In this document: positions 45,776 through 63,119 of the stretch, in pieces | Layout of the letters: every line of letters starts with the position of its first letter | Position numbering within the stretch: the stretch's first letter is position 1 | Assembly (NCBI GenBank): GCA_958295785.1 | Contig: OY282377.1 | Location: 3,534,896-3,598,895, forward strand | DNA length: 64,000 nt | Source of the DNA: an uncultured Latescibacterota bacterium | GTDB lineage: Bacteria > Latescibacterota > UBA2968 | Direction: 5' to 3' | Translations under genes and position numbers: made by a program | The notes under the pieces: generated by a model | Databases searched by the model: none | Told to the model about the DNA's origin: nothing | The model's input: only the letters and a program-made list of their open reading frames with translations

Positions 45776-46429
45776 TCAAATGGGTATAACACCCCTTTGT
45801 TTGAGCGTTTCGGGGGTATCAGCCGAGACAGAGATGGCGCCGAGTTCTCTGAGGTGGGCGTTGTCCGGCGAGTCCAAAGCGAATACCGGCTTGCCCTGGG
45901 CGAGCGCGGCCTTGCACAGCCCCTCGGTCTTGCTGCCCGGTTCGGCATGGGCGATGAAGATGTGGTCGGCCAACGCGGCGACGTAGGCATTGCGCCGGGC
46001 AGCTATAGCGACGGTTGGGCGCCGGATGGTGTCGGCGAAAAAGGACAGGATGAGCAAGCGGCCTTGGGTGAGTGCGGGTTTCCAACTTTTCGGGATTCGC
46101 AGGCGCTGGAATCCCCGCGCCGGACAAACGACAATGGACGCCGTGCCCCGCAACAGAATGTCCAGAAATTCTTTCTCCATCGCGGACTGAAAACCGCCGA
46201 TGATCGCCGCGTCTGCCTCTCGGAGTGCCTGCGCCAGATCATAGGTCTTGAGGATAATGTCGCCCGGACACCGCACAGAGCAAAAGAACCCAATCGGGGT
46301 TCTGTCCAGTGCGCCGAGATTGCCTCGTGCTGTGACGACAGGAGGGGTGCCGTTATCCTCACATTGGCGCAACACCGCCGGATAGTCCGCAGCGTCGGGG
46401 CTTAACAGCGTTTGCTTCTCATTATCCAT
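45776..46429 (-). CDS. DprA/Smf-like Rossmann-fold (SLOG) domain protein, short stand-alone version
   Basis: Matches DprA Rossmann core (...AIIGGF...EKEFL..., NAYVAALADHIFIAHAEPGSKTEGLCKAALAQGKPVFAL) but only 217 aa. Confidence 0.55.
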   Translation of the reverse strand: MDNEKQTLLSPDAADYPAVLRQCEDNGTPPVVTARGNLGALDRTPIGFFCSVRCPGDIILKTYDLAQALREADAAIIGGFQSAMEKEFLDILLRGTASIVVCPARGFQRLRIPKSWKPALTQGRLLILSFFADTIRRPTVAIAARRNAYVAALADHIFIAHAEPGSKTEGLCKAALAQGKPVFALDSPDNAHLRELGAISVSADTPETLKQRGVIPI

Positions 46430-46567: not shown

Positions 46568-46584
46568 CATGTACTCCAATTACC

Positions 46585-46864: not shown

Positions 46865-46875
46865 GGTAGCAGTTA

Positions 46876-47085: not shown

Positions 47086-47100
47086 TTTATCCTCCTATGT

Positions 47101-47316
47101 TCACATTCGTTGTTTGAAGTGTACGCAAAAATAAAATTGGTAGGCGATCATGTCGCGCTTGTGGGCGATGTCTTTGAGCGCGTAAGGCTTGTCGGCGACC
47201 GTGACTTCAACATCCGCTCCGCCGGGGTTCTAGCTGAACTCGTCAGTGAACAGCGTCTGGAGATCAAAGGTCTCCAGATGCTGTTTGACTTTGTTTCTGT
47301 CGAGAGGCGTCGACAT
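47101..47316 (-). pseudogene. Remnant of the N-terminus (approx first 60 codons) of a third PglX-like methyltransferase copy, with an in-frame TAG
   Basis: Translation MSTPLDRNKVKQHLETFDLQTLFTDEFS*NPGGADVEVTVADKPYALKDIAHKRDMIAYQ parallels MNFNRNTVKRHLENFDLQTLFIEELGWDHGGADTEVTIAGKTYALEAIAHKRGMVAYQ; TGG to TAG at 47229-47231. Confidence 0.6.
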
Positions 47317-47344
47317 TTCAAGGGCCTCACAAGGATGGCGGCGG

Positions 47345-47634
47345 CAGAATACAAATTACGCCCTGCTTTCGCCGTGCTTAGGAGAAGGCCAGCGCGGGAT
47401 TGCTCGATGGGCAGTAGCTTCCCATTTGCGCGATTTATTCCCCTTCGACAACCGGATGGCCGTCTCCACCGCGTTCCGAGTTCCTCGGCTCCGCGTTGGT
47501 GGAGTCGATTTCTGACTCTGTGGAGAGGTCTTGAGTCTCATGGTTTACCTCCTTGAATTGACCCAAGAGGGTCAGCCCTTCATTTAGCTTGGGGATTAGG
47601 GCATTAAAAATTTCATCTAATTCCTGCGGTGATT
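47345..47634. repeat. Direct repeat B copy 2 (functional 3' end of the protease gene and downstream sequence)
   Basis: See copy 1. Confidence 0.7.
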
Positions 47635-48469: not shown

Positions 48470-48572
48470 TCGTCTTCCTCCTTATCAGCACGTTTCTGAC
48501 AATTTAGCCGCCTAACCGAGATTTGTCAAGACAGGAACTTCTCATCATGCCTTGCTCGTGCATTGCTATTGC

Positions 48573-48806
48573 TCACCGCCCCATGCGATACTTGATGTCG
48601 TAGTTGATGATGAAGTCCAATTCCTCGTCCGTGAAGCCGTAGTGTTTGGCCAACACGCGGTCAATTTCGTCGATAATAGGCTTTGATTCCCTATGGTAGT
48701 ACTCATAATCCGTTTGCTTAGTTCCAACAAATTTTTTGTTTTCTTCCAAGTGCAGTTCAAGAGACCTGCCAAGCTTGATGAGTGACTTTCTATTAGTTTT
48801 AGACAT
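48573..48806 (-). pseudogene. Displaced C-terminal fragment (77 codons) of methyltransferase copy 1, separated from the gene body by the IS
   Basis: Begins exactly at the IS left end; tail ...IDEIDRVLAKHYGFTDEELDFIINYDIKY parallels the copy-2 C-terminus ...HEIDEWISTTFSIKPERVEEI. Confidence 0.6.
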
Positions 48807-49900
48807 TTAGGACTTACGCATGCTGAGTTAAAAAAGGGTGCAATTCCGTAAAATTTATCACTTTGAGGAGGTATCAATGCGCCACCCGACGCGTTTGGAT
48901 TACTGTCAGTATCTGCTTAGCAGTCCCCTCAACTATACCCTGACCCATTTCGCCGACCATAGCGAAGGGTTCAGTCATGATATGATCAACCGCTATCTCG
49001 CCGGTGCGCGTATCCCACCCCGCTTGGTGTGGGAACACGTCAAAGACCACATCGCGTTGACGCCCAAAGGCTATGTGATCTTTGATGACACGGTTTTAGA
49101 CAAGCGACACGCACGCAAGATCGCGTTAGTGCGCCGTCAATATAGCGGCAACGCCCAAGGCGTCATCAACGGCATCGGGGTGGTCACATGTGTCTATGTC
49201 AATCCGCAAGAGGATCGGTTCTGGCTGATTGACTATCGGATTTATGACCCGCAAGGCGATGGCAAAACCAAATTGGATCATCTCAAGGACATGCTCTCTG
49301 GGTTGGTCTATCAGAAGCGCCTTCCTTTTACCGGGGTCTTGATGGACAGTTGGTATGCGACCAAAACGGTCATGCTACACATAGAGCAGATGCAAAAAAC
49401 CTATTATTGTCCCCTCAAGACGAACCGGCGCGTGGACGATTCGGCAGGCACAATCCCCTACCAGCGCGTAGATAGCTTAACTTGGACTCAAGAGGAGCGC
49501 AAACAAGGCAAGTCCATTAAAATCAGAGGGTTCCCCAAAGACCACAAAGTGAAATTATTCCGGGTGGCGTCTTCTGCCAGACGCACGGCGTATGTCGTGA
49601 CCAACGACCATGCTCAAAACGATTCTTCAGTGGTACAACAGGTGTGTCACCAAAGATGGAAAATTGAGCAATTTCACCGCGAAGTCAAACAAGTGACCGG
49701 GCTTGAAAAGTGTCAATGCCGGTTGGCACGCATTGTACGAAATCATATTGGGTGTGCGATGTTAGTTTGGATAAGACTCGAGCAGGTGGCCTATCAAACA
49801 GGACAAACCATTTATCAAGTCAAATACCGAGGGCTGGCTGACTTCTTGAGACAACAACTCAAAGCACCTCATATTCCAATGGTGATTGCGTAAGTCCTAA
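48807..49900 (+). mobile_element. Insertion sequence (approx 1.09 kb) with 13-bp perfect terminal inverted repeats TTAGGACTTACGC / GCGTAAGTCCTAA, inserted into methyltransferase copy 1
   Basis: Inverted repeats at 48807-48819 and 49888-49900; flanking CAT/ATG triplet appears duplicated (48804-48806 and 49901-49903). Confidence 0.7.
48877..49893 (+). CDS. DDE transposase (IS4/IS5/IS701-superfamily-like)
   Basis: GAGGAGG RBS; candidate DDE residues in VIFDDTVLDK, VLMDSWYATK and RWKIEQFHREVKQ. Confidence 0.65.
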   Translation: MRHPTRLDYCQYLLSSPLNYTLTHFADHSEGFSHDMINRYLAGARIPPRLVWEHVKDHIALTPKGYVIFDDTVLDKRHARKIALVRRQYSGNAQGVINGIGVVTCVYVNPQEDRFWLIDYRIYDPQGDGKTKLDHLKDMLSGLVYQKRLPFTGVLMDSWYATKTVMLHIEQMQKTYYCPLKTNRRVDDSAGTIPYQRVDSLTWTQEERKQGKSIKIRGFPKDHKVKLFRVASSARRTAYVVTNDHAQNDSSVVQQVCHQRWKIEQFHREVKQVTGLEKCQCRLARIVRNHIGCAMLVWIRLEQVAYQTGQTIYQVKYRGLADFLRQQLKAPHIPMVIA

Positions 49901-52900
49901 CATTTTTCCCAAGTCAATACGAAAATCGCTCACGTCATCAACAGTCAAATGCCAGCAGTCTCCTTTAGTTTCCCAATGCCAAAAGAACAAGCTGGAATTA
50001 AACACACCTGACAACTCCTCTGGTTGAATTCCTTTTGCCGGATAATAAGTTTTAAACTCCCGTGACTTCTTGGAGGCAAGAAAACACTTTACCCACATCA
50101 TCAATCTAATGTTCAAATAGAATGGTTGAGAATCAGTTTTGCGATTAGAGTACAACGTATTCAGTGGGAGAATGTCCCTGTTGATTTTGCTGATAATGGA
50201 TTCTTCAAGTTCCGTTGCAAACTTACGAATAAATCCCTTTCGATAGTTTAGTCTGTTGTAATCCAGGTTGTTAAAAAGATGATTCCTTTCACTGTCGGGA
50301 GCTCTTCCATAAAAGTGAGTAAATCCTGTGGAATGGATGGCAGAATTTCCCTTAGTGCAAAGTATGATTGAAAGTTTCTGATGTACCCCAAAAAATAATG
50401 TAGATGGTCTGTCAGCATAATTACTGATATGCAACATAGGATAGGTTGCGGTTATGACATTTCGAGCTTGATTCATCCTCTTGGTTGACACCCAAGAGAT
50501 AGGAATTATCCACCCCGCATTTCTTTGACCGAGCGAGGTTCCCCGCTCAAGCACGAAGGCGTAAAGGCTGCCGCAGGATTCGGTTTCGTAGCCTTTGACG
50601 GTGTAGCCTTCTTTGGTTTTTTTGACTTTGCTGTATTCCACATACGGCGGATTCCCAATAATCACATCAAAGCCACCCTTGTGCATGATGCCGTAGAACT
50701 CGACGAACCAATGAAACGGCTGATGGCTGTCGCGCCATCGCTGATACGCTCGCCGGCTCTTGGGCTTGACGCCGTATTCACCGGCCAAATACTCGTCCAA
50801 CTCATCGCGCAGATTAGTGAGGCGTTTCCGCAATTTCAACTTCGCGCTGGCAAACGCACTGGCGTCCATCCCAGGTTTCGTCTGCATCTGGCGGAACTGG
50901 CGAAAGGCGCGGTCGGCTTTCTCGGCGCGTTCCTCGATCTGGGGAAGCGACAGTTGCTTGATCAGGTCGCTACTCAATGCTTCCTTCACTTGCGCGAGCG
51001 AAGTGAAGCCGACGAGCGTGTTCCCGGCGCGGACGTTGAAGTCGATGTCGGGCAACGGCTCGATCTGCTCGTAAGTATCCAACTGCGCGACGAGTTTGAG
51101 GAACAGCCGCAGCTTGCAGATTTCCACCGCCTCCTCCATGATATCCACGCCGTAGAGATTGCCGATGATGATCGACTTGAGAATGAAATAGCGTTCGCTG
51201 GCGTGCTCTTCAACCTGTTGCAACACTTGGCGAAAATCGCGCAGTTTCTCGGGGCGGTGCTTGCGGTTCAAGCGTTCCAAGTCGTCGAGGAAACCGCGCA
51301 TGGCCTCCAAGCAGGCGACGTAGAGCGGCTCCAAAATGTTGAGCGCGGCGAATAGGAATGCGCCCGAGCCGCAGGTGGGATCGAGGACGGAGACCGCGTT
51401 GATCGCCTTCCAAAAAGCGTGCACCAGTTCCGGCCCCTCGCTGCTCGCAATGACGTCTTGGGCAAACTTTTCGATGTCCAAATTGTACGTGATCAGATCG
51501 TTGATCGACGCGATTGCACCAGCGGCGAGTTTGGCGCGGATGTCCTCATAGCGTTGGCGGCGGGCAATGTGCTCGCGCCACGTCTCGGTCGGCAGAGCGT
51601 ATTCGGGCGGGGCCGCTTCGTTCCAGCCATCGCGCTTTGCTATGTCGTCCAGACCGGCGGCGATCTCCGGCGGCAGGGCGCGTTTTTCGGCAAGGTCCGC
51701 GTTGTTGTGCAGATCGTAGGTGATGCCGTGACGCACCGCCTCGTGAAAGTAGCGATCCGGGGCGTCCGACAGCAACCGCCATATCCAGCCATCGGGCGAG
51801 AAGGCGATGGCGCATGCCTTTCGCGCTCGGTCGAACAAGAACGGAATGATGCTGTTGCGGCTAATGTAGCCGGTAATGTCTTCCTTGGTGTAGTACGCCC
51901 CCATCTGTTTCTGGTTGATGTACTTCTCGAAAATGTAGCCGAGCACATCGGGGTTGATCTCGTTGTCGTTGCGGAGCGGCCGGTCGTCGAGATGCCATTG
52001 GTACGCGTCGAAGAACGCGAAAATCTGTTCAAAGGCTTCGTCGGGAATGTGAATTTCCGGGTTGTCCCGCTCCAAGTCATGCACCTCGAACAAGCCGCCG
52101 TTGAGATAGGGGACTTTGCCGATCAGGGCGACCAAGGCGGGGGCGCGGTCAGCTTCGGGCTGTCCCAAGCCCTCGTGAAACAGCCGCAACAGGAACAGCC
52201 GGTAAAAGCCGAGGAAGTTGCCCTCGCCCTGTTGCTGGCGCACCCGTTCCAAACGGTCGCGCAGATAGTTTGGGTTGTTGTCGAGAAAACCGCGCTTCTG
52301 GATGAAGTAAATGAACATCATGCGATTGAGCATCAGCGAGGCGTACCACTCGCGGTCAGTCAAATTTTCAATGCCCTCGATGAAGTCCAGAAACGCGCTG
52401 TGCTCTTTCTTGAACCGGTCATAGAATCGCTTGGCGACTTTCTCCACATCGAAAGCCGCCCGCACTCGGCTCGTCACATCGACAAGGGTGAGGGCTTCTT
52501 CCTCCTCCAGCGCGAAGGCGATTTGCTCTAACTTCTGGACCAGGGATTCGCCCGATTGCCCCCGATCATAGATATGCTGTCGAGACCGATCGGGGCGACC
52601 CGGTTCGCGCTTGACCCATTGCCAATACTGGGCATCGGCGCGTGCGTAGATGATGAGGTGTTCGCGGACGGTCTTGGCGACATTCCGCTCGATCTTCTGC
52701 CGAGTGGGGTAATCGGGCAAGGCCCTGTCCGAATCCGCCATGTATTGATAGGCAACCATACCGCGCTTGTGGGCGATGGCCTCGAGCGCGTAAGTCTTAC
52801 CGGCGATAGTAACCTCGGTATCCGCTCCGCCGTGGTCCCAGCCGAGTTCTTCAATGAAGAGCGTCTGAAGATCGAAGTTCTCCAGATGTCGTTTGACTGT

Positions 52901-52918
52901 GTTTCTGTTGAAATTCAT
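49859..52918 (-). CDS. PglX/DrmMI-like (Eco57I-superfamily) N6-adenine DNA methyltransferase, copy 1; TRD truncated by the IS, so likely inactivated
   Basis: Motif I VLDPTCGSGAFL, motif IV IIGNPPYV; last 13 aa (LGLTQSPLEYEVL) are encoded by the IS right end. Confidence 0.75.
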   Translation of the reverse strand: MNFNRNTVKRHLENFDLQTLFIEELGWDHGGADTEVTIAGKTYALEAIAHKRGMVAYQYMADSDRALPDYPTRQKIERNVAKTVREHLIIYARADAQYWQWVKREPGRPDRSRQHIYDRGQSGESLVQKLEQIAFALEEEEALTLVDVTSRVRAAFDVEKVAKRFYDRFKKEHSAFLDFIEGIENLTDREWYASLMLNRMMFIYFIQKRGFLDNNPNYLRDRLERVRQQQGEGNFLGFYRLFLLRLFHEGLGQPEADRAPALVALIGKVPYLNGGLFEVHDLERDNPEIHIPDEAFEQIFAFFDAYQWHLDDRPLRNDNEINPDVLGYIFEKYINQKQMGAYYTKEDITGYISRNSIIPFLFDRARKACAIAFSPDGWIWRLLSDAPDRYFHEAVRHGITYDLHNNADLAEKRALPPEIAAGLDDIAKRDGWNEAAPPEYALPTETWREHIARRQRYEDIRAKLAAGAIASINDLITYNLDIEKFAQDVIASSEGPELVHAFWKAINAVSVLDPTCGSGAFLFAALNILEPLYVACLEAMRGFLDDLERLNRKHRPEKLRDFRQVLQQVEEHASERYFILKSIIIGNLYGVDIMEEAVEICKLRLFLKLVAQLDTYEQIEPLPDIDFNVRAGNTLVGFTSLAQVKEALSSDLIKQLSLPQIEERAEKADRAFRQFRQMQTKPGMDASAFASAKLKLRKRLTNLRDELDEYLAGEYGVKPKSRRAYQRWRDSHQPFHWFVEFYGIMHKGGFDVIIGNPPYVEYSKVKKTKEGYTVKGYETESCGSLYAFVLERGTSLGQRNAGWIIPISWVSTKRMNQARNVITATYPMLHISNYADRPSTLFFGVHQKLSIILCTKGNSAIHSTGFTHFYGRAPDSERNHLFNNLDYNRLNYRKGFIRKFATELEESIISKINRDILPLNTLYSNRKTDSQPFYLNIRLMMWVKCFLASKKSREFKTYYPAKGIQPEELSGVFNSSLFFWHWETKGDCWHLTVDDVSDFRIDLGKMLGLTQSPLEYEVL

Positions 52919-52958
52919 GGTGAAACCTCTACTGCGAAACTACGAAAAACGCGAAAAG
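50650..52958. repeat. Approx 2.3-kb near-identical direct repeat (copy 1) covering the methyltransferase 5' leader through the NPPY motif
   Basis: Matches 55195-57503; identity degrades at the low-coordinate boundary. Confidence 0.8.
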
Positions 52959-53016
52959 GCGCAAAAAAAACAATGCCCATTCTTCAGTCCTTTCGCGCCT
53001 TTCACGTTTTTCGTAG
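52936..53016. repeat. Long imperfect hairpin (22-bp arms CTACGAAAAACGCGAAAAGGCGC / GCGCCTTTCACGTTTTTCGTAG) between the HNH gene and methyltransferase copy 1
   Basis: Arms are near-perfect reverse complements separated by approx 35 nt; same motif family recurs at 57481-57668 and 58058. Confidence 0.45.
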
Positions 53017-53040
53017 TCCCTTTTCGCCCCATGCGATTTC

Positions 53041-54009
53041 TCAGGCCAACTCGACTCCCCGCAACTCACTGCCGAGTGAAAGGTTATCCGGTGCAGGAAA
53101 CCACTCGTCATTGGCTGGCAGAAGTAGTTCACTTCTGAGTTGCTCTTCGTACCTACTCAGCCCATCGGCTCTGCCCATTTTTTTTAAGTGCTTAACTCTA
53201 GACGAGTTCAGATGGATTGAGTAGTCATCCCGAACATAGAGTAGTCCGGTATCGAAAGACCGATGATGCAAGGAGCAAAGAGCCAAGCCATTGCTGACTA
53301 CATCATGCCCTTGTAGATGGGCGTGTGGCACAATATGAGCGGCATCTACAAGGCCCAGTTGAATCCCGCACATTGCACACCTGTAGGAGTACGCTTCTAA
53401 CACCGCTTGCCTGAATCGTGGGTTTCGAGGATACGCAGTACTAGTTACCTGTATTCTCTGTCGCTTGACCGCGATTGGTCGCGCAAGGAATTGCTTATAG
53501 TCTCGGGCTATCCTTTGCAATGCCCGATCAGTATCTCGGTGAAGTGCTGCCTGGTTCTCCACATACAAACCAATGAGATCGGGGCGAAACATGATCACGA
53601 TTTGCCCATCGGTGTCGGTATGAGTTGATAATCCCTGTGCGGCAGCCTCCTGCATGCGCGATAACCGAGTATAGAGAGAAAATCGCTGGACTCTCGATTT
53701 CCGGTCCAAAAGTCTGTCTGGATCCCATGCGCTGAATGTATTTACGTCTGCGGAAAATCCGAGAACGAGAACCTTGTCCTCCCTTTGTCTATTCCTGAGT
53801 TTCTCAGGCAAGTCGCCTGGACATTGGATCCGATATTCATCCGGCGTACGGCTAGTAGAATGGATGTTGCCAATGAAAACAGTAACGAACTTGTCTTTGA
53901 AGAAAAAGCGGTACGGATTGTCTCTGCCATCAAAATAGACGAGGTCTGTGTGTTGTCGAAAAGCGTCGAACAATGCATGGAACAGATCCATCTTGTTTAG
54001 TATGACCAT
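53041..54009 (-). CDS. HNH endonuclease with approx 200-aa uncharacterised N-terminal domain
   Basis: C-terminal HNH motif CAMCGIQLGLVDAAHIVPHAHLQGHDVVSNGLALCSLHHRSFD. Confidence 0.7.
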   Translation of the reverse strand: MVILNKMDLFHALFDAFRQHTDLVYFDGRDNPYRFFFKDKFVTVFIGNIHSTSRTPDEYRIQCPGDLPEKLRNRQREDKVLVLGFSADVNTFSAWDPDRLLDRKSRVQRFSLYTRLSRMQEAAAQGLSTHTDTDGQIVIMFRPDLIGLYVENQAALHRDTDRALQRIARDYKQFLARPIAVKRQRIQVTSTAYPRNPRFRQAVLEAYSYRCAMCGIQLGLVDAAHIVPHAHLQGHDVVSNGLALCSLHHRSFDTGLLYVRDDYSIHLNSSRVKHLKKMGRADGLSRYEEQLRSELLLPANDEWFPAPDNLSLGSELRGVELA

Positions 54010-54037
54010 TTCAAATTATCCTCAATCGTTATGCCGA

Positions 54038-57000
54038 CTAAATTTCTTCAACGCGCTCAGGTTTAATCGAGAATGTCGTCGATATCCACTCGTCAATTTC
54101 GTGCAGACGACCATCGGCGGAAAAATCCATGGGACTCGGCGGCAGGAAACGCTCTCTTAGAGATGGGGGGATGTTCTTCTCTCCGGCTTCGTAGTTGATA
54201 CTACGTACCAAAGAAATAAAAAAAAATAATTCTTTCAAATCAGCCCAACCTGCACCCAGTCCCGAAAGAAATACAACATCGGCCTTTCTCGTCAGTGAAA
54301 GCAACTTTTGATAGTTGAAATTTCCAACGTACTTACCTGCGTTTTTCTTAAAGACAAGCGCGGAATATCTTTGTTGGTGTAGTAATTCTCCAATGGTAGC
54401 CAGCCTGCGTAAATGATCTTTTGGAAACGAAGCGATGGGCGCGAGGAGGTCCGTGAGTAACCAGTTTGTAACGTGGAATCCATCCCCTCGCGTTAGCCAA
54501 TACCAAAAGCAGGCGTCGCCTGCTGTACTCGCGAGCGCGGCAAATGCTATCTCATCAGAGGGCAGTGTCAGCCAGCCGCACTGAGCGGGATCGAGCACAC
54601 ATCCGTCATCTACGTGCAATACGGGTGGCTGTTCAAGATATGTAGAAATGAAATTCCGCGCTGTGGGCGAAAATCCCAATCTGACTGTTGCACCATCTGT
54701 AGCGCAGGGCGAGGTTGGCTTTGAGGGAGATGACTCGATGTGCAATGCCAACAGTTTTGCACAGTAGCGATTCGCCAAGCGGGGAATGCCGAAATTTTCG
54801 GCGGGGACGCCATTAGCTACCTTGTTATAGGTTATGTTGTTCAGCAGAAAAGTCCGAAACGCCGAGCGCCATCTAAAGAGACGAGTGGCGAACGAATCGC
54901 CATCCGATGGGGAACTAAGCCAGATTGTGCATCGCTGGCTTACGCCGGAAAAGAGGGTTGCGGGCCCATTGTCGAAAGAAGAAAACCAATGCGTCCCCCT
55001 GTTGGCGAGTTGCCCCCGGAGGTCAGAAAACTCAAAGCTGAAGGTCACAGAAAGGGGAACAATAACCCCGTAGCGTCCGCACTGATTGGTGATGCGGTGG
55101 GATTGCATGACCACGTATCCATAAATGTCCGGGAATTTCAGGGACTTGGGCGACTGCACAACGTATTCCAGTGACTTGCAGTTGATATACGGCGGGTTCC
55201 CGATCACCACATCAAAGCCGCCCTTGTGCATGATGCCGTAGAACTCGACGAACCAATGAAACGGCTGGTGGCTGTCGCGCCATCGCTGATACGCTCGCCG
55301 GCTCTTGGGCTTGACGCCGTATTCACCGGCCAAATACTCGTCCAATTCGTCGCGCAGATTGGTGAGGCGTTTCCGCAATTCCGACTTCGCGCTGGCAAAC
55401 GCACTGGCATCCATCCCAGGTTTCGTCTGCATGGCGTGGAACTGGCGAAAGGCGTGGTCGGCTTTCTCGGCGCGTTTCTCGATCTGGGGAAGCGACAGTT
55501 GCTTGATCAGGTCGCTACTCAATGCTTCCTTCACTTGCGCGAGCGACGTGAAGCCGACGAGCGTGTTCCCGGCGCGGACGTTGAAGTCGATGTCGGGCAA
55601 CGGCTCGATCTGCTCGTAAGTATCCAACTGCGCGACGAGTTTGAGGAACAGCCGTAGCTTGCAGATTTCCACCGCCTCCTCCATGATATCCACGCCATAG
55701 AGATTGCCGATGATGATCGACTTGAGAATGAAATAGCGTTCGCTGGCGTGCTCTTCAACCTGTTGCAACACTTGGCGGAAGTCGCACAGTTTCTCGGGAT
55801 GGTGCTTGCGGTTCGAGCGTTCCAAGTCGTCGAGGAAACCGCGCATGGCCTCCAAGCAGGCGACGTAGAGCGGCTCCAAAATGTTGAGCGCGGCGAATAG
55901 GAATGCGCCCGAGCCGCAGGTGGGATCGAGGACGGAGACCGCGTTGATCGCCTTCCAAAAAGCGCGAATCAGTTCCGGCCCCTCGCTGCTCGCAATGACG
56001 TCTTGGGCAAACTTTTCGATGTCCAAATTGTACGTGATCAGATCGTTGATCGACGCGATTGCACCAGCGGCGAGTTTGGCGCGGATGTCCTCATAGCGTT
56101 GGCGGCGGGCGATGTGCTCGCGCCACGTCTCGGTCGGCAGAGCGTATTCGGGCGGGGCCGCTTCGTTCCAGCCATCGCGCTTTGCTATGTCGTCCAGACC
56201 GGCGGCGATCTCCGGCGGCAGGGCGCGTTTTTCGACAAGGTCCGCGTTGTTGTGCAGATCGTAGGTGATGCCGTGACGCACCGCCTCGTGAAAGTAGCGA
56301 TCCGGGGCGTCCGACAGCAACCGCCATACCCAGCCATCGGGCGAGAAGGCGATGGCGCATGCCTTTCGCGCTCGGTCGAACAAGAACGGAATGATGCTGT
56401 TGCGGCTAATGTAGCCGGTGATGTCTTCCTTGGTGTAGTACGCCCCCATCTGTTTCTGGTTGATGTACTTCTCGAAAATGTAGCCGAGCACATCGGGGTT
56501 GATCTCGTTGTCGTTGCGGAGCGGCCGGTCGTCGAGATGCCATTGGTACGCGTCGAAGAACGCGAAAATCTGTTCAAAGGCTTCGTCGGGAATGTGAATT
56601 TCCGGGTGGTCCCGCTCCAAGTCATGCACCTCGAACAAGCCGCCATTGAGATAGGGGACTTTGCCGATCAGGGCGACCAAGGCGGGGGCGCGGTCGGCTT
56701 CGGGCTGTCCCAAGCCCTCGTGAAACAGCCGCAACAGGAACAGCCGGTAAAAGCCGAGGAAGTTGCCCTCGCCCTGTTGCTGGCGCACCCGTTCCAAACG
56801 GTCGCGCAGATAGTTTGGGTTGTTGTCGAGAAAACCGCGCTTCTGGATGAAGTAAATGAACATCATGCGATTGAGCATCAGCGAGGCGTACCACTCGCGG
56901 TCAGTCAAATTTTCAATGCCCTCGATGAAGTCCAGAAACGCGCTGTGCTCTTTCTTGAACCGATCATAGAATCGCTTGGTGACTTTCTCCACATCGAAAG

Positions 57001-57463
57001 CCGCCCGCACTCGGCTCGTCACATCGACAAGGGTGAGGTCTTCTTCCTCCTCCAGCGCGAAGGCGATTTGCTCTAACTTCTGGACCAGGGATTCGCCCGA
57101 TTGCCCCCGATCATAGATATGCTGTCGAGACCGATCGGGGCGACCCGGTTCGCGCTTGACCCATTGCCAATACTGGGCATCGGCGCGTGCGTAGATGATG
57201 AGGTGTTCGCGGACGGTCTTGGCGACATTCCGCTCGATCTTCTGCCGAGTGGGGTAATCGGGCAAGGCCCTGTCCGAATCCGCCATGTATTGATAGGCAA
57301 CCATACCGCGCTTGTGGGCGATGGCCTCGAGCGCGTAAGTCTTACCGGCGATAGTAACCTCGGTATCCGCTCCGCCGTGGTCCCAGCCGAGTTCTTCAAT
57401 GAAGAGCGTCTGAAGATCGAAGTTCTCCAGATGTCGTTTGACTGTGTTTCTGTTGAAATTCAT
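54038..57463 (-). CDS. PglX/DrmMI-like (Eco57I-superfamily) N6-adenine DNA methyltransferase, copy 2 (1141 aa, apparently intact)
   Basis: Motif I VLDPTCGSGAFL, motif IV VIGNPPYI; N-terminal approx 745 aa approx 97-98% identical (by eye) to copy 1; C-terminal approx 390 aa unrelated. Confidence 0.8.
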   Translation of the reverse strand: MNFNRNTVKRHLENFDLQTLFIEELGWDHGGADTEVTIAGKTYALEAIAHKRGMVAYQYMADSDRALPDYPTRQKIERNVAKTVREHLIIYARADAQYWQWVKREPGRPDRSRQHIYDRGQSGESLVQKLEQIAFALEEEEDLTLVDVTSRVRAAFDVEKVTKRFYDRFKKEHSAFLDFIEGIENLTDREWYASLMLNRMMFIYFIQKRGFLDNNPNYLRDRLERVRQQQGEGNFLGFYRLFLLRLFHEGLGQPEADRAPALVALIGKVPYLNGGLFEVHDLERDHPEIHIPDEAFEQIFAFFDAYQWHLDDRPLRNDNEINPDVLGYIFEKYINQKQMGAYYTKEDITGYISRNSIIPFLFDRARKACAIAFSPDGWVWRLLSDAPDRYFHEAVRHGITYDLHNNADLVEKRALPPEIAAGLDDIAKRDGWNEAAPPEYALPTETWREHIARRQRYEDIRAKLAAGAIASINDLITYNLDIEKFAQDVIASSEGPELIRAFWKAINAVSVLDPTCGSGAFLFAALNILEPLYVACLEAMRGFLDDLERSNRKHHPEKLCDFRQVLQQVEEHASERYFILKSIIIGNLYGVDIMEEAVEICKLRLFLKLVAQLDTYEQIEPLPDIDFNVRAGNTLVGFTSLAQVKEALSSDLIKQLSLPQIEKRAEKADHAFRQFHAMQTKPGMDASAFASAKSELRKRLTNLRDELDEYLAGEYGVKPKSRRAYQRWRDSHQPFHWFVEFYGIMHKGGFDVVIGNPPYINCKSLEYVVQSPKSLKFPDIYGYVVMQSHRITNQCGRYGVIVPLSVTFSFEFSDLRGQLANRGTHWFSSFDNGPATLFSGVSQRCTIWLSSPSDGDSFATRLFRWRSAFRTFLLNNITYNKVANGVPAENFGIPRLANRYCAKLLALHIESSPSKPTSPCATDGATVRLGFSPTARNFISTYLEQPPVLHVDDGCVLDPAQCGWLTLPSDEIAFAALASTAGDACFWYWLTRGDGFHVTNWLLTDLLAPIASFPKDHLRRLATIGELLHQQRYSALVFKKNAGKYVGNFNYQKLLSLTRKADVVFLSGLGAGWADLKELFFFISLVRSINYEAGEKNIPPSLRERFLPPSPMDFSADGRLHEIDEWISTTFSIKPERVEEI

Positions 57464-57503
57464 GGTGAAACCTCTACTGCGAAACTACGAAAAACGCGAA
57501 AAA
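55195..57503. repeat. Approx 2.3-kb near-identical direct repeat (copy 2)
   Basis: See 50650-52958. Confidence 0.8.
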
Positions 57504-57526
57504 GGCAAGGCCATAGCCCCGCTTTG

Positions 57527-57668
57527 ATTTTCGCGTCCTTTCGCGCTTTTCGTAGTGGAAAATACGATCATCTATAACTACGAAAGAGAAAAAAAAGACA
57601 AAGCCCACTCCTCGCCCCTTTCGCGTCCTTCCGCGCTTTTCGTAGTGGAAAATACGATCATCCTATAA
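57527..57668. repeat. Tandem approx 90-bp units containing palindromic motif TTTCGCGTCCTTTCGCGCTTTTCGTAGTGGAAAATACGATCATC in the methyltransferase-2 leader
   Basis: Units at 57527-57578 and 57620-57668 plus partial third copy at 58058-58085; CTACGAAA/TTTCGTAG inverted cores. Confidence 0.5.
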
Positions 57669-57686
57669 GACGCGAAAGGGATGTTT

Positions 57687-58052
57687 TACAATTCGTTGAC
57701 GAAACGTTCGTATTCTAATTTTGGGTGATAGCCGAAATTGACGAGCAGGCCGAGTTTCATACCTGTTGATTTCAGGTAATTGATGATTTGGCGCGATGTC
57801 GGTCTTGATTTCCACAATTATTGTGTCGAAACAGAGAAAATCAGGTAGGTAGAACTGCTTCAACGCCTGCCCTTTGTAACGAAGTTTCAATTTTGTCTTT
57901 TCCTTGTGCGGGATATCCGAAGAAGTGAATTCCATTGCGAGGCACTCTTGATAAACAGCTTCGAGAAAGCCGGATCCTTTTTCTTTGTACACTTCAAAGC
58001 AGGCACCGATAATCCGGTAACTTTCTTCCTGATAGACAATTTTTCCAGTCAT
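57687..58052 (-). pseudogene. GxxExxY-family (PD-(D/E)XK-like) protein gene with an internal frameshift or small deletion
   Basis: N-part MTGKIVYQEESYRIIGACFEVYKEKGSGFLEAVYQEC...IIVEIKTDIA in one frame; C-part QIINYLKSTGMKLGLLVNFGYHPKLEYERFVNEL in another; ATG overlaps helicase stop as ATGA. Confidence 0.6.
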
Positions 58053-61000
58053 AATTTTCGCGTCCTTTCGCGCTTTTCGTCGTTCATCAGACCCATAGAG
58101 CAGATAATGCGCGGCTCTTGGCGTTCGTCTTCTTCGTGCATGATGCAAAGCCGGTCGTCATCTCTGAGCGCGATAACCAATTGCGCGAGGGCCTCGTCGG
58201 AGATGCTGCTACGCAACTGGCGGTTCAGCGTATCCACCGCCGTTTGGCGCAGGGGATAGCGGTAAATGTCTTCAATTGTACGCCGCAGCGAATCGGTATC
58301 GAACAACGTGCCTTTGACGTTTTCCGCATAGCTCTTGAGCCTTTCATAAGCGCGAAACCGCGCACCGGATGGCCGGCCGAGATGACCGCCGACCTGCTTT
58401 TCCTCACGGGCGATATGTTCTGCGGCTTTGCGAACCAAATCGTGGTGGGTCTCGTGGCGCGGGAGGGCCGGCGTATCGGGCACGCATGCGGCGGCGTGCA
58501 AAATCTCGAATTGACTTTCGGTCACGCTATTGCCATCGCGATTCATCCACGCCAAGGCATCGTGCCCCTGCGCTGTACGCATATAAACCAGCGCGCCTTC
58601 GGGCCGCTGTGGCGTTTCCGGATATGCCATTGATGAATGCACCACGGATGGCATCGCTTCAATTTTCCGCTCGAGCGATGGATCGGCTGTTGTCGCGTTT
58701 TTCCAAATCTGATACGCATACGAGGCGAGATCGACATCCGTCTCGTCGTCGCTGTCGAGAATCCCCGCCTTTTCGTTGTAGAGGTCGAGCACGGCCCGTT
58801 GATCCTCATCCTCGAAAAACGCCTCGTCCGTTCCCATCACCTCGGCATTGTCGCGGAGGCGCGTCCGAACGCGGGCGCGAAGTCGGATCAAGCGTTCAAT
58901 GCCCTCGGCAGGCAAAAAGGAGCAGCACAAAATATCTCGCGCCTGTTGACCGATGCGGTCCACGCGCCCGGCCCGTTGAATCAAGCGGATAATCGCCCAC
59001 GGCAAATCGTAATTGACAACGATGGCGCAGTCTTGCAGGTTTTGCCCCTCACTGAGCACGTCGGTTGCGACCAGCACGCGCAACTCGCCTCTAGATGAGA
59101 CCCAAGCCGTCTTGTCGTTGCTCTTTGGACTGAACCGCCACGCGAGTTCCGTCGGGTTCGCCATGTCCCCAGTCGCGGCGGCTATCCCGGACACGCCGCG
59201 TGCTTTTAGCTCCATCTCCAAATAGCGCACCGTGTCGGCGAACTGCGTAAAGACCAGAATTTTGCGGTCGGGATGTTCGTCCATGAGCAGGACTTCCAAG
59301 GCGCGGAGTTTCGCGTCTTCAGCCGCCCGCCACGCGCCGAACTGCGCCAACAAATTGAGCAGCGTCTCGGTGTCGGCGACCAAGTTCCTGCGAAGGGCGT
59401 CGCCAAAATGATGCGAGGCCAACCACCGAAACCGCCTTGTGTAGGTGTTGGCAAAGCGTGCGTAGATCGCGGCAGCGCGGTTGCGAAAATCCCTTTCGGC
59501 TCTTAGCGGCGTCGGCTCTGCGGGGGCCTCATTCTCCTCGTCATCCGCATCAAAAAAATCCCCGATAGTCTGATCGGCGTCCTCGTCAAAAGACTGCGGA
59601 TCCAAGAGTCCCGCATCTGTCGTCCCTATCGGAAGCGGCAGGTCATTTTCAAGGGCATACAAAAAAATGAAGTTCCGCAGAACGTGCCGTTCAACCGACA
59701 GCAAGAAGGCGTGGCCGCTGCTCTCCAAGCGTTTGAACAAATTGGTTCGGCAAAAACCCATCAGCCGCTTGCCCGCGCGCGACAAATCGTCCAGCACCTT
59801 CTTTTCTCTCGGCGTGGGTGGCATAGGCGGCGACGCCCCGACGTAGTTGCCGAGTCCATAGCGCGGCAGTTCCAAGCTGTTTATGGCGTCGATCACGTCG
59901 TTTGCAAATAGCCGGGCGTACTGATCGTCAATGTCGAACGGAATCGTCTTTGGAACCCGAGTCGGAAAATACGACCGCGTGCCATCTTCAAAGGTCAGGT
60001 ACTTGCGACCACTGTGCGGATCCGTGTCGGCGTAGTGTGCACGAATAAAACTGCGCGTCCGGCGCACGAGATATAAGCGCATGAGCTCGCGCCAGTCGTC
60101 CGCGTACTCGGATTTTTCAAACGCGGATAGAGACCGCACAGACGCTTGGTGCCGGCGGATGAACTCGGTTTCGCCGATCTCCTGCAACATGCGCTCTGGG
60201 CGAATGCCCAAGTCCTCGTCTTCGGGCACAAACAAGCGGAGTTGGCTGGACAGATCGAGATACGTTTTGTTGTAGGGCGTCGCGGACAGCAGAATACACT
60301 TGCTGTCGTTTTCCCAGATGTATTCTCGGATGGCCCGGTAGCGTTTGCCCTCGCGGTTTCTCAGGTTGTGGCTTTCGTCGATGATCACCAACCGATACCG
60401 GCGCAGGTCGGGCAGTTCGTTGATGACGCGGCTCACCGATAGCACGCGGGCGCGCATGCGGTATTGATCGCGGTAATCCTCCCACATGGAAACGAGGTTT
60501 TTCGGACTTATGATCAGGGTTTCGAGGCCGTGATCGTCTTCGAACACACGCGCCAAGGCCGTCGCCATCAGGGTCTTGCCCAGCCCGACGACATCGCCGA
60601 TGATGACGCCGCCGCGTCGGTTGAGGTGATGCGCGGCGATTTTCACGGCAGCCGTTTGGAAATCGAGGAGTTTGTCGCCAAAATCTTTCGGGATGCGAAA
60701 TTCCGCCAAGCCGGCCCGCGCTTCTTGCGAGAGGTGGTACGCAATCTTGATGTAGATATGGTGCGGCGGGATCAGTTCTTCTCGCGCCCAACTCTCGTCG
60801 ATAATCTCGGCGAGCGCGTCAGAAATATCCACGCACCAGCGGTCATTCCAGCGGTCTTCAAACCACTGGGCGAGTTTTTCGCAGGCGTCTCGGTCGAGCA
60901 CGTCAATGTTGAGTTCGCCCTGTCGGGACAGCCCCGATAGCGTGAGATTGCTGCTTCCGAGATAGCCAACCGTCGGGTTGATCGGATCGGGACGGAATAA

Positions 61001-61462
61001 CAAGTAGAGCTTGGCGTGAAGCGGGTGTTTGAGAAAGAGCTTGACGACGACTTTCTCAGCCTTGATCTGCGCTGCCAACCGCCGCAGACCCGCCTCATCT
61101 TCATTGGTCGGCGCGCCCAAGATCAGTTGTTCCCGAAATTCTTCCGCGAGTCTTTTCTTTATGCGGTGTGCCGCCTGATTGTCGAGCGCGGAGCGATTGC
61201 CCGACAAGCTCGCGGACAGCCGAAACTCGTCGTGTGGCAAGCGTTGCATCCCAACGAGAAGCCGGCAACAATGTCCGACGCCTCCGCGCCACTTTTCCAC
61301 GTATTCATCAATTGACCGCCATCCTCGCAGGTTGAAATAGCCCACGCAAAAATCCGCCCGCTCTGCGATCTCCAGGGTCTCCGCCAACGCGGGATGGAGG
61401 TGTTGTTCAATATTGTCGAAAATTCGGGGCATACATGCTCCTACGGTTTGGAATTGGATCAT
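58049..61462 (-). CDS. Fusion protein: N-terminal PLD-family (single HKD) nuclease-like domain + SNF2-family helicase
   Basis: HKD motif HAKLYLLFRPD...GSSN; SNF2 motifs GLGKTL (I), IIDESHNLRN (II), helicase-C QRAGRVDRIGQ (VI); AGGAGA RBS. Confidence 0.8.
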   Translation of the reverse strand: MIQFQTVGACMPRIFDNIEQHLHPALAETLEIAERADFCVGYFNLRGWRSIDEYVEKWRGGVGHCCRLLVGMQRLPHDEFRLSASLSGNRSALDNQAAHRIKKRLAEEFREQLILGAPTNEDEAGLRRLAAQIKAEKVVVKLFLKHPLHAKLYLLFRPDPINPTVGYLGSSNLTLSGLSRQGELNIDVLDRDACEKLAQWFEDRWNDRWCVDISDALAEIIDESWAREELIPPHHIYIKIAYHLSQEARAGLAEFRIPKDFGDKLLDFQTAAVKIAAHHLNRRGGVIIGDVVGLGKTLMATALARVFEDDHGLETLIISPKNLVSMWEDYRDQYRMRARVLSVSRVINELPDLRRYRLVIIDESHNLRNREGKRYRAIREYIWENDSKCILLSATPYNKTYLDLSSQLRLFVPEDEDLGIRPERMLQEIGETEFIRRHQASVRSLSAFEKSEYADDWRELMRLYLVRRTRSFIRAHYADTDPHSGRKYLTFEDGTRSYFPTRVPKTIPFDIDDQYARLFANDVIDAINSLELPRYGLGNYVGASPPMPPTPREKKVLDDLSRAGKRLMGFCRTNLFKRLESSGHAFLLSVERHVLRNFIFLYALENDLPLPIGTTDAGLLDPQSFDEDADQTIGDFFDADDEENEAPAEPTPLRAERDFRNRAAAIYARFANTYTRRFRWLASHHFGDALRRNLVADTETLLNLLAQFGAWRAAEDAKLRALEVLLMDEHPDRKILVFTQFADTVRYLEMELKARGVSGIAAATGDMANPTELAWRFSPKSNDKTAWVSSRGELRVLVATDVLSEGQNLQDCAIVVNYDLPWAIIRLIQRAGRVDRIGQQARDILCCSFLPAEGIERLIRLRARVRTRLRDNAEVMGTDEAFFEDEDQRAVLDLYNEKAGILDSDDETDVDLASYAYQIWKNATTADPSLERKIEAMPSVVHSSMAYPETPQRPEGALVYMRTAQGHDALAWMNRDGNSVTESQFEILHAAACVPDTPALPRHETHHDLVRKAAEHIAREEKQVGGHLGRPSGARFRAYERLKSYAENVKGTLFDTDSLRRTIEDIYRYPLRQTAVDTLNRQLRSSISDEALAQLVIALRDDDRLCIMHEEDERQEPRIICSMGLMNDEKRERTRKL

Positions 61463-61505
61463 TTGGTTTGATCTCCTAAGATTACGCTGGCGATGTCAGC
61501 ACGGG

Positions 61506-61528
61506 TTGACGAAAGGGCATCGTCAACG
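61506..61528. promoter_or_regulatory. Perfect 8-bp inverted repeat GTTGACGA-N7-TCGTCAAC between a TATAAT-like -10 and the helicase RBS (candidate operator)
   Basis: Located in the 90-bp gap upstream of the helicase start; not followed by a T-run on the coding strand. Confidence 0.3.
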
Positions 61529-61553
61529 CATCGCATATTTTGAGAACTAAAAA

Positions 61554-63119
61554 TTATATGCCGAGCGCGCTTTGTTCGCACTCGGCGTATTTTTTTCTGA
61601 GCGCGTCGTACACTGCGGGATTGGAGGGCGAGACCGCAGAGGCGGATAGGGGGTTGGCGATGCCCGCGATGAGGTCTTCCCAAGGGGTGTCCTGCGAGGC
61701 GTTGAGGTGGGCGTGGGCTGCGCGCAAAGCCGCGCCGAGGGCCGCGCTGTTGGTGACTTCAAACGGGTACACCGGGCAGTTTTGCACATCGGCCATGATC
61801 TGGAGGATTTCGGGATTGACAGACGCGCCGCCGGTCGCGTAAATGGCCGAGGGCCGCACGCCCATCCATTCCGCGTGCAAGCGCATGGACATCATCTGTG
61901 CCTCGACAACCGCGCGGCAATTGCCAGCCGCGTCTCGTTCGTCGAGGTCAAAGCGGTGAACGCGAGGGACGAGCACATTCGGCACAATCTCAGGCTCGAA
62001 ATAGGGCAGCATGATTTTGCCATCATTGCCGGGAGGCGTGGATTGAAGGGCGCGAGAAAAATCGTCCCAGTCCAAGCCGTGCGCTTTGCGAACCGCGTCG
62101 CGGGCGAGCGAGCCATTTTTGAAACACAAGAGGGTCATATAGTCGCCCGTGGGCGAAACAAAAACGTGCCCCTCGCCGCGCGGATCGGTCTGGCAAAATT
62201 TCATCGTGCCAAAATAGGTGTCGCTGGTGCCGAGCGAAATGGCGACCATGCCCTCGCGGATGAGACCTAGGCCAATGACGCTGTTGGGATTGTCGCCCGA
62301 CCAAACAAGGGCCTGCGCCTGGGGATTGAAATCGTATTTATCGACAAAATACCGGCTGACCGGCCCGATCACTGCGCGGGATGCGGCAAGCGGGGGCAGG
62401 CGGTCAGACAGGCCGGGGGCGGTGGCGTCGAGCGCGCGGGGATGCCATGCGCGCCGCTGAATGTCCATCAAATTCATGCCCGCGCCATCGCCGTGATCGA
62501 TGGGGGCAACTGTGCCCGCGATCAAAGAAGCCATAAAGGAACTGACGAGCATGACATGTGCCGTGTGGGCATAAGCATCGGGTTGCGTTTTGTAAAATTT
62601 GCGAATCTGCGGCCCTGTAAAGCGTTCAAAAGTCGTCGAGCCGGTGGCCCTCGTGGTCGCCTGAAGCCCGCCCAAGGCAGCGCGAATTTCATCGCATTCA
62701 ACGCGCGTTGAGGAATCCATCCAGATCGGCGATGTGTTGCGAGAGAATACCCCATCGAGATTTTGAACGAGGGATTTTGCGGGATCGAGATTGGACAAGG
62801 CGCGCACAATGCCGGCGTTGAGATAGACAGAGCCGTGTTGCTGCCCCGAACCCGAGATGGCCCGAATATGGCCCAGGCTGACGCCTTCGGCTTTCAGAGT
62901 GTCAAACAGCGCGTCGAGGGCCTCGGCCCACATGAGGGGCGGCGCGTGAACAATTTTGGGATCGGGATTGTCTAAAACGCCATTTTGCGTGCCGTAGTGC
63001 GGCAGCGTTTCGTCGTAGTTTAAGGAAATATCGCACACCGCGTTGCGGGTGTCGAGATCGATAAGAACAGCACTCAAGCTCTGTGTGCTCGCGTCGAGTC
63101 CGAGATAGAGGGTGCTCAT
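61554..63119 (-). CDS. FGGY-family carbohydrate kinase (xylulokinase-like)
   Basis: N-terminal LGLDASTQSLSAVL and GQQHG motifs, approx 520 aa. Confidence 0.7.
   Translation of the reverse strand: MSTLYLGLDASTQSLSAVLIDLDTRNAVCDISLNYDETLPHYGTQNGVLDNPDPKIVHAPPLMWAEALDALFDTLKAEGVSLGHIRAISGSGQQHGSVYLNAGIVRALSNLDPAKSLVQNLDGVFSRNTSPIWMDSSTRVECDEIRAALGGLQATTRATGSTTFERFTGPQIRKFYKTQPDAYAHTAHVMLVSSFMASLIAGTVAPIDHGDGAGMNLMDIQRRAWHPRALDATAPGLSDRLPPLAASRAVIGPVSRYFVDKYDFNPQAQALVWSGDNPNSVIGLGLIREGMVAISLGTSDTYFGTMKFCQTDPRGEGHVFVSPTGDYMTLLCFKNGSLARDAVRKAHGLDWDDFSRALQSTPPGNDGKIMLPYFEPEIVPNVLVPRVHRFDLDERDAAGNCRAVVEAQMMSMRLHAEWMGVRPSAIYATGGASVNPEILQIMADVQNCPVYPFEVTNSAALGAALRAAHAHLNASQDTPWEDLIAGIANPLSASAVSPSNPAVYDALRKKYAECEQSALGI

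Follow-up and report, generated by a model that had tools for sequence, protein, structure and literature searches.

A PLD-SNF2 fusion protein from a Latescibacterota bacterium is probably the motor-nuclease subunit of a two-protein ATP-dependent restriction-modification system

The stretch of DNA analyzed here (the window) is 64,000 nucleotides (nt) long, comes from an uncultured Latescibacterota bacterium (GenBank assembly GCA_958295785.1, contig OY282377.1, positions 3,534,896 to 3,598,895), and carries on its minus strand a gene in which a phospholipase D (PLD)-like nuclease domain is fused to an SNF2-type helicase. We propose that this gene (58049..61432) probably encodes the motor-nuclease ("R") subunit of an ATP-dependent restriction-modification (RM) system that consists of two proteins and is of the Type I/III/ISP-like kind. 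The proposal rests on the domain content of the protein, its intact catalytic motifs, its pairing with a DNA methyltransferase (MTase), its mobile-type spread, and the defense-type cargo found with it (HNH, PIN/VapC, AAA_21, and GxxExxY genes). The protein belongs to an already known, biochemically uncharacterized kind, and its fusion is genuine but routine; locally, the greatest interest attaches not to the fusion but to the tandem MTases with swapped specificity regions behind one motor-nuclease.

The coordinates first given for the gene, 58049 to 61462, were right, but the coding strand is the minus strand: the plus-strand translation of this interval is full of stops, and we discarded that reading. 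From the in-frame ATG at 61462, the open reading frame (ORF) encodes 1137 amino acids (aa) (ORF list and translation), and all residue numbers below are counted from that ATG. The true start is probably the downstream ATG at 61432 (Met11), because an AGGAG lies ~6 nt upstream of it and because nearly all homologs, like the gene call at ENA, start at this position. The resulting protein of 1127 aa is identical to the one called on the ENA contig, and its stop codon occupies 58049-58051. An N-terminal PLD (single HKD) nuclease-like domain (60818..61432, minus strand; about aa 11 to 215) is followed by an SNF2-type SF2 ATPase core (58853..60679, minus strand; about aa 262 to 870) that matches Pfam SNF2-rel_dom, ResIII, DEAD, and Helicase_C. 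The family-conserved C-terminal region (58052..58852, minus strand; aa 871 to 1137), a small beta-sheet and then a helical bundle, is a candidate docking or regulatory domain.

Structure prediction and fold comparison modeled the N-terminal segment as a PLD fold, and the segment scored above the curated Pfam cutoffs for PLDc_2 (33.4 bits versus a cutoff of 27, E value = 4.5e-8) and RE_NgoFVII (25.1 bits versus a cutoff of 23.8), in both cases over aa 111 to 205, so that the PLD domain named in the original prediction is borne out by both the model and the profile searches. Among the nearest PLD folds are those of nucleases (SauUSI, Zucchini, NucT, Nuc, NgoAVII, and BfiI). The HKD motif, HAKLYLLFRPDPINPTVGYLGSSN (60947..61018, minus strand; aa 149 to 172), was found in the minus-strand translation as originally quoted, as were the strings GLGKT, DESH, and QRAGRVDRIGQ. 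The catalytic residues are there, but they are not spaced as HxK-x4-D-x6-GSxN: the translation gives HxK-x7-D-x9-GSSN (H149-x-K151-x7-D159-x9-G169-S-S-N172), with Phe156 at K+5. In an alignment of 81 sequences (this protein and 80 homologs from other genomes), H149, D159, G169, S170, S171, and N172 were invariant and K151 was present in 80 of 81, and this strict conservation of H, K, D, and GSSN argues for catalysis. Single-HKD PLD domains pair to form one active site in Nuc, BfiI, and SauUSI. We rejected the NCBIfam model NF042964 ("phospholipase D-like domain-containing anti-phage protein") as a match, since it reached 135.9 bits versus a cutoff of 1100 and covered the helicase C-lobe only.

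The SNF2 ATPase core is full, as had been proposed. SNF2-rel_dom matched aa 262 to 399 (39.8 bits versus a cutoff of 24.9), with ResIII and DEAD also over their cutoffs, and Helicase_C matched aa 718 to 838 (62.5 bits versus a cutoff of 23.5). Motifs I (GLGKT, aa 293 to 297), III (SATP, aa 393 to 396), V (TDVLSEGQNL, aa 800 to 809), and VI (QRAGRVDRIGQ, aa 829 to 839) were invariant or nearly so among the 81 homologs, while in motif II, of the DExH type (DESH, aa 362 to 365), D, E, and S were invariant and H was present in 89%. A long, poorly conserved insert separates the lobes at about aa 600 to 720. The PADLOC model PDLC01075, "HKD+Snf2" (C3a139), which has no curated cutoff, matched aa 123 to 871 on profile positions 87 to 761 of 948 (E value = 3.2e-48, 163 bits).

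In a PDB sequence search, the nearest solved sequences to the motor were RapA and SNF2 chains, for lobe 2 only and as generic helicase C-lobe matches. RapA being among them, together with the metabolic look of the flanking FGGY kinase, PhyH, and CN-hydrolase genes, could speak for a RapA-like housekeeping factor of transcription or repair, or for a lipid-acting phospholipase, with no defense role. We regard this as extremely improbable, given that the NCBIfam RapA model scored 52 bits versus a cutoff of 576, that the nearest PLD folds include nucleases, that a DNA MTase partner was always present (78 of 78 informative loci), that the protein is 66 to 80% identical between different phyla and has plasmid copies, and that the G+C content (GC) of the island falls to 0.42-0.50 in its variable parts. 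The neighborhood and distribution data effectively refute this alternative, and the protein is not a RapA-like housekeeping factor devoid of defense context.

We then considered the genes next to the fusion, counting over the 80 best loci (66 to 80% helicase identity; labels such as L001 denote single loci). Searching these loci by tblastn with the neighbors from the window recovered an MTase homolog on the same strand, directly downstream of the helicase gene, in 78 of 80. The remaining two loci end at or just past the helicase gene, so that the MTase was present in all 78 informative loci. The gap between the two genes had a median of 9 nt and was ≤100 nt in 61 of 76 cases, and in Pelobacter pPRO1 the genes abut. 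Helicase identity was correlated with the identity of the N-terminal 450 aa of the MTase (r = 0.84, n = 71 loci). The neighborhood link to m6A methyltransferases that the original prediction had suggested surveying is thus present throughout, the next gene downstream being an Eco57I/MmeI-like N6-adenine MTase, and a restriction effector analogous to those of Type I/III/ISP systems, as first suggested, is the best reading of the gene.

The window holds two such MTases, both on the minus strand. Methyltransferase 1 (MT1; 54038..57463; 1141 aa) belongs to the gamma class of N6-adenine MTases, is Eco57I/MmeI/PglX-like, and has a C-terminal specificity region of its own, and methyltransferase 2 (MT2; 49859..52918; 1019 aa) carries a different specificity region after aa 760. 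Both have motif I (DPTCGSGAF) and motif IV (NPPY) and match Pfam Eco57I and MmeI_Mtase. The two are ~98% identical over aa 1 to 760 (~2.3 kb of DNA), and their C-terminal specificity regions are unrelated. Two MTase copies within 10 kb were found at 0 of the 80 related loci. One motor-nuclease served by two MTases with differing specificity regions would probably address two recognition sequences. Milman et al. (2023, PMC9881135) described the same pair, as a Type II RM coding sequence with an adjacent coding sequence bearing PLD (cd09178) and SNF domains, within a set of loci that undergo programmed inversion. In 46000-62000 of the window, inverted repeats of ≥40 nt were looked for and not found, which indicates that the locus is not an inversion shufflon of that sort (PMC9881135); the duplication is direct. 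Recombination between the direct MT1 and MT2 repeats would delete the target recognition domain of MT1 and the HNH gene.

The MTases themselves could be read in another way, as self-sufficient bifunctional Type IIG/IIL RM enzymes, with the PLD-SNF2 protein as an accessory (for example, a remodeler) or as an independent defense gene. The PADLOC model REase_MTase_IIG matched strongly (E value = 7.6e-284 for MT1, E value = 0 for MT2), the Pfam matches Eco57I and MmeI_Mtase are of the same tenor, and a weak HSDR_N similarity has been noted in the related MTase Slr6050 (Hagemann et al., PMC6105098). We nonetheless consider this unlikely. An invariant acidic/lysine nuclease triad was not found in the N-terminal 110 aa of the MTase in an alignment of 27 sequences, where the sole invariant residues were L20, G26, A49, P68, R73, W99, and W101; MmeI was just a marginal profile match (E value = 1.6e-3); and the strict, coevolving pairing with a nuclease-bearing motor would be hard to explain. 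In addition, Morgan et al. (2009, PMC2731913) divided the MmeI homologs into two classes, with and without a PD-ExK nuclease; in the class without it, a helicase gene was always flanking, two expressed examples had no endonuclease activity, and a Type I-like system with single-strand methylation was proposed. The proteins studied here have the features of that helicase-flanked class (MmeI_Mtase plus Eco57I, no nuclease triad, helicase adjacent in 78 of 78), and the present system is a variant of it without the separate GIY-YIG/YeeC-type nuclease of the Bacillus subtilis form. The N-terminal ~110 aa of the MTase are highly conserved and are kept even in a remnant copy in the window; as a speculation, they and the C-terminal domain of the helicase may form the contact surface between the two proteins.

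The nearest solved structures point in a further direction. A PDB search with the single MTase sequence gave no match; a profile was needed, and it recovered BREX PglX/BrxX (E value of ~4e-11), then TaqI and HsdM. These relatives, the weak NCBIfam matches to BREX PglX, the Snf2-type helicases of BrxHII and the BREX-related (BR) systems, and the noncanonical HKD spacing would all suit a BREX-like exclusion without cutting, in which methylation marks self, unmarked DNA is kept from replicating by the SNF2 motor, and the PLD domain is degenerate or does not cut DNA backbones in bulk. The conservation of H, K, D, and GSSN across the 81 homologs and the nucleases among the best PLD fold matches make this improbable, as does the fact that no PglZ, BrxC, BrxA/B, or DUF499 gene was found in the window or as a recurrent neighbor in the 80 loci.

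Under the preferred reading of the gene as an R subunit, and by analogy with characterized ATP-dependent RM systems, the MTase would read a short asymmetric site and methylate the host copies of it, and on unmethylated DNA it would recruit or license the PLD-SNF2 protein. This protein would probably act as a dimer, because single-HKD PLD domains must pair, with two HKD domains giving one composite active site. The dimer would move along duplex DNA with ATP and, in the manner of Type I, III, and ISP enzymes, cut remotely or when motors collide. Two further proteins encoded in the same island, DprA-like and MTaX1-HNH (see below), would be accessory parts.

Next, we looked into how common the fusion is. 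A search of 5.8 billion clustered proteins gave relatives in at least 8000 clusters at 90% identity, and relatives were found in at least 530 species (one genome per species). The best 120 matches were 75 to 92% identical with the same domain set, and all but one were 1089 to 1156 aa long, the exception being a 943-aa sequence without a PLDc_2 match; where these matches were named, they were called "helicase-related protein" or "NgoFVII family restriction endonuclease." With the PLD domain alone as the query, 2216 clusters at 50% identity were recovered (308 at an E value of ≤1e-30), and in every full-length match the domain formed residues 1 to 250 of a protein of ~1100 aa. The 80 best loci came from Latescibacterota, Acidobacteriota, Gamma- and Alphaproteobacteria, Chloroflexota, Nitrospirota, Desulfobacterota, Planctomycetota, Verrucomicrobiota, Bacteroidota, and Firmicutes, and the gene was present in 37 plasmid records. 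This patchy spread across phyla at 66 to 80% identity, together with the plasmid copies, is typical of mobile defense genes. In a phage collection, there were no true homologs, only distant helicase matches. The original prediction had called the fusion an unusual architecture, and this did not hold: besides the numbers of clusters and species, a PADLOC "HKD+Snf2" model exists and SNF2-PLD fusions have been published, SWI2/SNF2 proteins fused to PD-(D/E)XK or PLD/HKD nucleases having been described in predicted RM-like, DUF499-centered (Hma/BR) systems (Bell et al. 2020, PMC7641849; Rakesh & Krishnan 2026, PMC12839542). The PLD-SNF2 fusion is a fixed and abundant architecture and ranks among the commoner large defense proteins.

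The set of activities (nuclease, double-stranded DNA translocase, gamma-class N6-adenine MTase, and specificity region) is the same as that of the Type ISP enzymes (LlaGI and LlaBIII) and of Type I and Type III systems. Those systems act at asymmetric sites and cleave in an ATP-dependent manner. A Type ISP enzyme is one polypeptide with an Mrr/PD-(D/E)XK nuclease, whereas here the activities are divided between two proteins, the nuclease being of the PLD type and the motor of the SNF2 type, so that membership in the Type ISP family is ruled out by the two polypeptides and the PLD nuclease even though the function set is shared. The R subunits of Type I and Type III systems likewise differ from the PLD-SNF2 protein in having PD-(D/E)XK nucleases and non-SNF2 motors. 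The ATP-dependent Type II systems NgoAVII and CglI have a separate nuclease and NTPase, a B3-like DNA-binding domain on the nuclease, and separate MTases. SauUSI attacks modified DNA, carries a C-terminal modified-cytosine reader, lacks an MTase partner, and has an ATPase that is not of the SNF2 type. This Type IV ATP-dependent restriction endonuclease offers a solved example of an N-terminal PLD domain followed by an SF2 ATPase (PDB 7clg).

Among the closest known systems is a direct ortholog pair on plasmid pSYSX of Synechocystis sp. PCC 6803, namely, the helicase-related protein WP_011153866, which aligns at 52% identity across 98% of its length, and Slr6050 (M.Ssp6803IV), which is 48% identical to MT2 over the full length. 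The gene order on pSYSX is as here (helicase, a VapBC toxin-antitoxin in the slot between the genes, and an MTase of 1100 aa), although pSYSX has a single MTase and no DprA-like or HNH gene nearby, whereas the window has two MTases and both of these genes. An undeletable MTase beside an intact nuclease gene is a classic signature of an active RM pair. For Slr6050, GA(m6A)GGC was put forward as a tentative, asymmetric target site, and attempts to knock the gene out did not reach full segregation (Hagemann et al., PMC6105098), which, we infer, fits an active cognate nuclease; the authors of that study did not draw this link. On pSYSX (L081, 16924-19545), the operon adjoins a ubiquitin-like conjugation cluster of ThiF-family, E2/UBC, multiubiquitin, and DUF6527 genes as well as a helix-turn-helix and ImmA/IrrE pair, a defense-island-like setting.

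The DnmA(YeeA)-YeeB-YeeC system resembles ours in having an MmeI-like MTase without its own nuclease motif and a flanking SF2 helicase; it differs in that a protein of its own, the GIY-YIG/T5orf172 protein YeeC, supplies the nuclease and in that its MTase gene comes first, whereas here a PLD domain is fused to the SNF2 motor and the helicase gene comes first. According to the literature, a yeeAB pair of Vibrio protects against phage. The Hma or Type-2 BR systems also have an HKD-endoDNase fused to Swi2/Snf2, with the HKD domain at the N terminus as here, and for HmaA, the Snf2-nuclease fusion, both the helicase and the nuclease domains were needed for defense (PMC11232893). What defines these systems, besides the HKD-Snf2 helicase and an MTase, is the presence of a DUF499 AAA+ ATPase and of DUF3780 next to them (PMC12839542), and a related archaeal operon has a COG1743 methyltransferase; none of these three was found in the island of the window or as a recurrent neighbor in the 80 loci. 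We rejected an assignment to Hma or Type-2 BR: the island has no DUF499 or DUF3780 gene, the 80 loci have no recurrent cluster of an ATPase of ~1000 aa, and the PADLOC HmaA model reached 69 bits only. Class 1 DISARM likewise brings together PLD nuclease and SNF2 helicase activities, in DrmC and DrmD, respectively, with a related MTase (DrmMI), and these gave weak-to-moderate HMM (hidden Markov model) matches; those to DrmD, DrmA, and DrmMI were partial and did not come near their cutoffs. The original comparison with DISARM was correct in that PLD and SNF2 are in separate proteins there and in one protein here, but the likeness goes no further than resemblance, and we rejected DISARM because neither DrmA (a DUF1998-associated helicase) nor DrmB was found in the island or recurrently in the 80 loci, and DrmD scored 119 bits versus a cutoff of 610.

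The fusion gene lies in an island of about 45.7-61.5 kb with metabolic flanks (a CN-hydrolase gene at one end, FGGY kinase and PhyH genes at the other). The gene order on the minus strand is PLD-SNF2, GxxExxY, MT1, MTaX1-HNH, MT2, an SDH-like ORF, an MTase remnant, and the DprA-like gene, with an IS701 transposase on the other strand after MT2. GC is 0.56-0.59 in the conserved helicase and MTase cores versus 0.42-0.50 at 49500-50500, 53000-54500, and 47000-49500 (the specificity regions, the HNH gene, and the insertion sequence region), a contrast that fits horizontal exchange of the variable modules. A terminator-like hairpin past the upstream FGGY gene is consistent with a new transcription unit, and the promoter and terminator scan otherwise gave nothing decisive.

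Two slots in this operon hold cargo. The gap between the helicase and MTase genes contains a GxxExxY/PDDEXK_3 gene (57686..58052, minus strand) whose start codon shares nucleotides with the stop of the helicase gene (ATGA). A frameshift interrupts it near 57795, its Pfam and NCBIfam matches end at profile position 77 of 117, and it is probably a pseudogene, or else carries a sequencing error. The gene is bracketed by a 25- to 44-nt direct repeat (TTTCGCGTCCTTTCGCGCTTTTCGT...) with copies at 58056, 57619, and 57529, the first of which encodes the nonconserved tail of the helicase, DEKRERTRK; it looks like an inserted mobile cassette. Elsewhere, the same slot holds PIN/VapC genes in five loci and in Synechocystis pSYSX and GxxExxY genes in three loci (among them L015 and L018), and the slot after the MTase holds MTaX1-HNH in eight loci and an AAA_21 ATPase in seven. 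In the window, the MTaX1-HNH endonuclease (53041..54009, minus strand; 322 aa) matches Pfam MTaX1 and HNH_2 and PADLOC HNH, with a weak match to a phosphorothioate-DNA-binding restriction endonuclease model. It follows the MTase in L001, L002, L007, L009, L018, L026, and L075 and is confined to loci in which the MTase has an MT1-type C-terminal region, which suggests that it is tied to the specificity module and not to the helicase.

Clustering of all ORFs in the 80 loci gave the DprA-like gene as the sole further recurrent gene besides the MTase. Its product in the window (45776..46429, minus strand; 217 aa) is a DprA-like (DNA_processg_A/SLOG-type Rossmann) protein (Pfam PF02481, 39 bits) with weak PADLOC matches to PsyrA (E value = 1.7e-14) and ShosA. 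Homologs on the same strand were present in 42 of the 80 loci, lying 4 to 4200 nt downstream of the MTase in 41 and upstream of the helicase in L024, and the region is collinear with L001, L002, L004, L009, and L012. By analogy with PsyrA and ShosA, the DprA-like protein may restrain or regulate the effector. The literature search found no named system or describing paper for the three-gene link of PLD-SNF2, MTase, and DprA-like; a Druantia preprint that came up as a candidate was set aside, as it concerns a different helicase, and a Burkholderia paper proved irrelevant.

The island also shows signs of turnover. The 5′ remnant of a third MTase (47134..47320, minus strand; repeat family D2, tblastn) covers aa 3 to 59 with 63% aa identity to MT1 and MT2 and matches the MTase start of L001, L002, L004, L009, and L012 (blastn). 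A hairpin with a 19-bp stem lies within the remnant at 47247-47287. Two copies of a segment (47348-47728 and 46592-46868) are 92% alike, and L001 has a single copy just after the HNH gene. The remnant and the duplicated segments point to repeated cassette turnover. The IS701-family transposase gene (48838..49893, plus strand; NCBIfam transpos_IS701_2, 398 bits versus a cutoff of 250) is an insertion within the island and overlaps the last 35 nt of MT2. The 344-aa ORF beside it (47435-48469, minus strand) has a partial SDH/ClpP-like protease match only and is probably chimeric, because its final 75 aa are part of the post-HNH segment that is present in two copies. Taken together with the frameshifted GxxExxY gene, such features, as well as the precedent proposed for B. 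subtilis DnmA-YeeB-YeeC (PMC7261158, PMC9973331), could mean that the system is a decaying relic in this genome, with orphan epigenetic MTases and a PLD-SNF2 protein that no longer restricts. We think there is little chance of this: the PLD-SNF2 ORF and both MTase ORFs are full length, align end to end with their homologs, and contain no frameshifts; the catalytic motifs are all intact; and the MTase copies have been kept ~98% identical over 2.3 kb.

Farther out, the window encodes a response regulator of the sigma-54 type together with a HAMP histidine kinase (38996-41796, minus strand). Five Latescibacterota loci have the same pair close to the system, but on its opposite side and on the opposite strand. 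The regulator matched the PADLOC model "RtcR_PspF2 CARF_AAA_HTH" (E value = 5.5e-116), while Pfam showed a receiver domain and not CARF; we rejected it as a CARF protein, since it is of the ordinary NtrC type and the PADLOC match is due to its AAA+ part.

Several points weigh against the identification of the gene as a restriction R subunit. The AlphaFold2 model has low confidence precisely at the GSSN loop, and the x7/x9 spacing of the HKD motif departs from the canonical x4/x6. The nearest solved relatives of the MTase are BREX PglX/BrxX, and BREX is not obviously cleavage based. The B. subtilis DnmA-YeeB-YeeC system methylates GACGAG and showed no restriction or phage protection (PMC7261158, PMC9973331), and our literature search found no paper testing restriction, ATPase, or nuclease activity in the PLD-SNF2 family. 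Finally, given the decay of the island (IS701, the frameshifted GxxExxY gene, and gene remnants), activity in this genome is not guaranteed.

A broader proposal, which we put forward tentatively and would not rate as high as an even chance, is that the PLD-SNF2 protein, the MmeI/PglX-like MTase, and the frequent DprA-like gene could make up a distinct, unnamed class of "split, PLD-armed, ISP-like" ATP-dependent RM systems that would be among the most widespread defense modules. Such a class would have two cargo slots (helicase-MTase and MTase-DprA) that gather toxins and extra nucleases, and its DprA-like protein might be a regulator or antitoxin of the motor-nuclease, as in PsyrTA and Shosta. 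Here, one motor-nuclease would work with two interchangeable MTase-specificity subunits, somewhat like the alternative HsdS subunits of Type I systems.

Annotation pipelines label the partner MTase a "Type IIG restriction enzyme-methyltransferase" and the nuclease-bearing motor just a "helicase-related protein," and a very common two-gene RM type is thus misdescribed. With its compact combination of PLD and SNF2, the system would offer a model for how an MTase-specificity subunit licenses a translocating nuclease, and the same model may serve for how specificity modules and accessory genes swap in and out of a defense operon.

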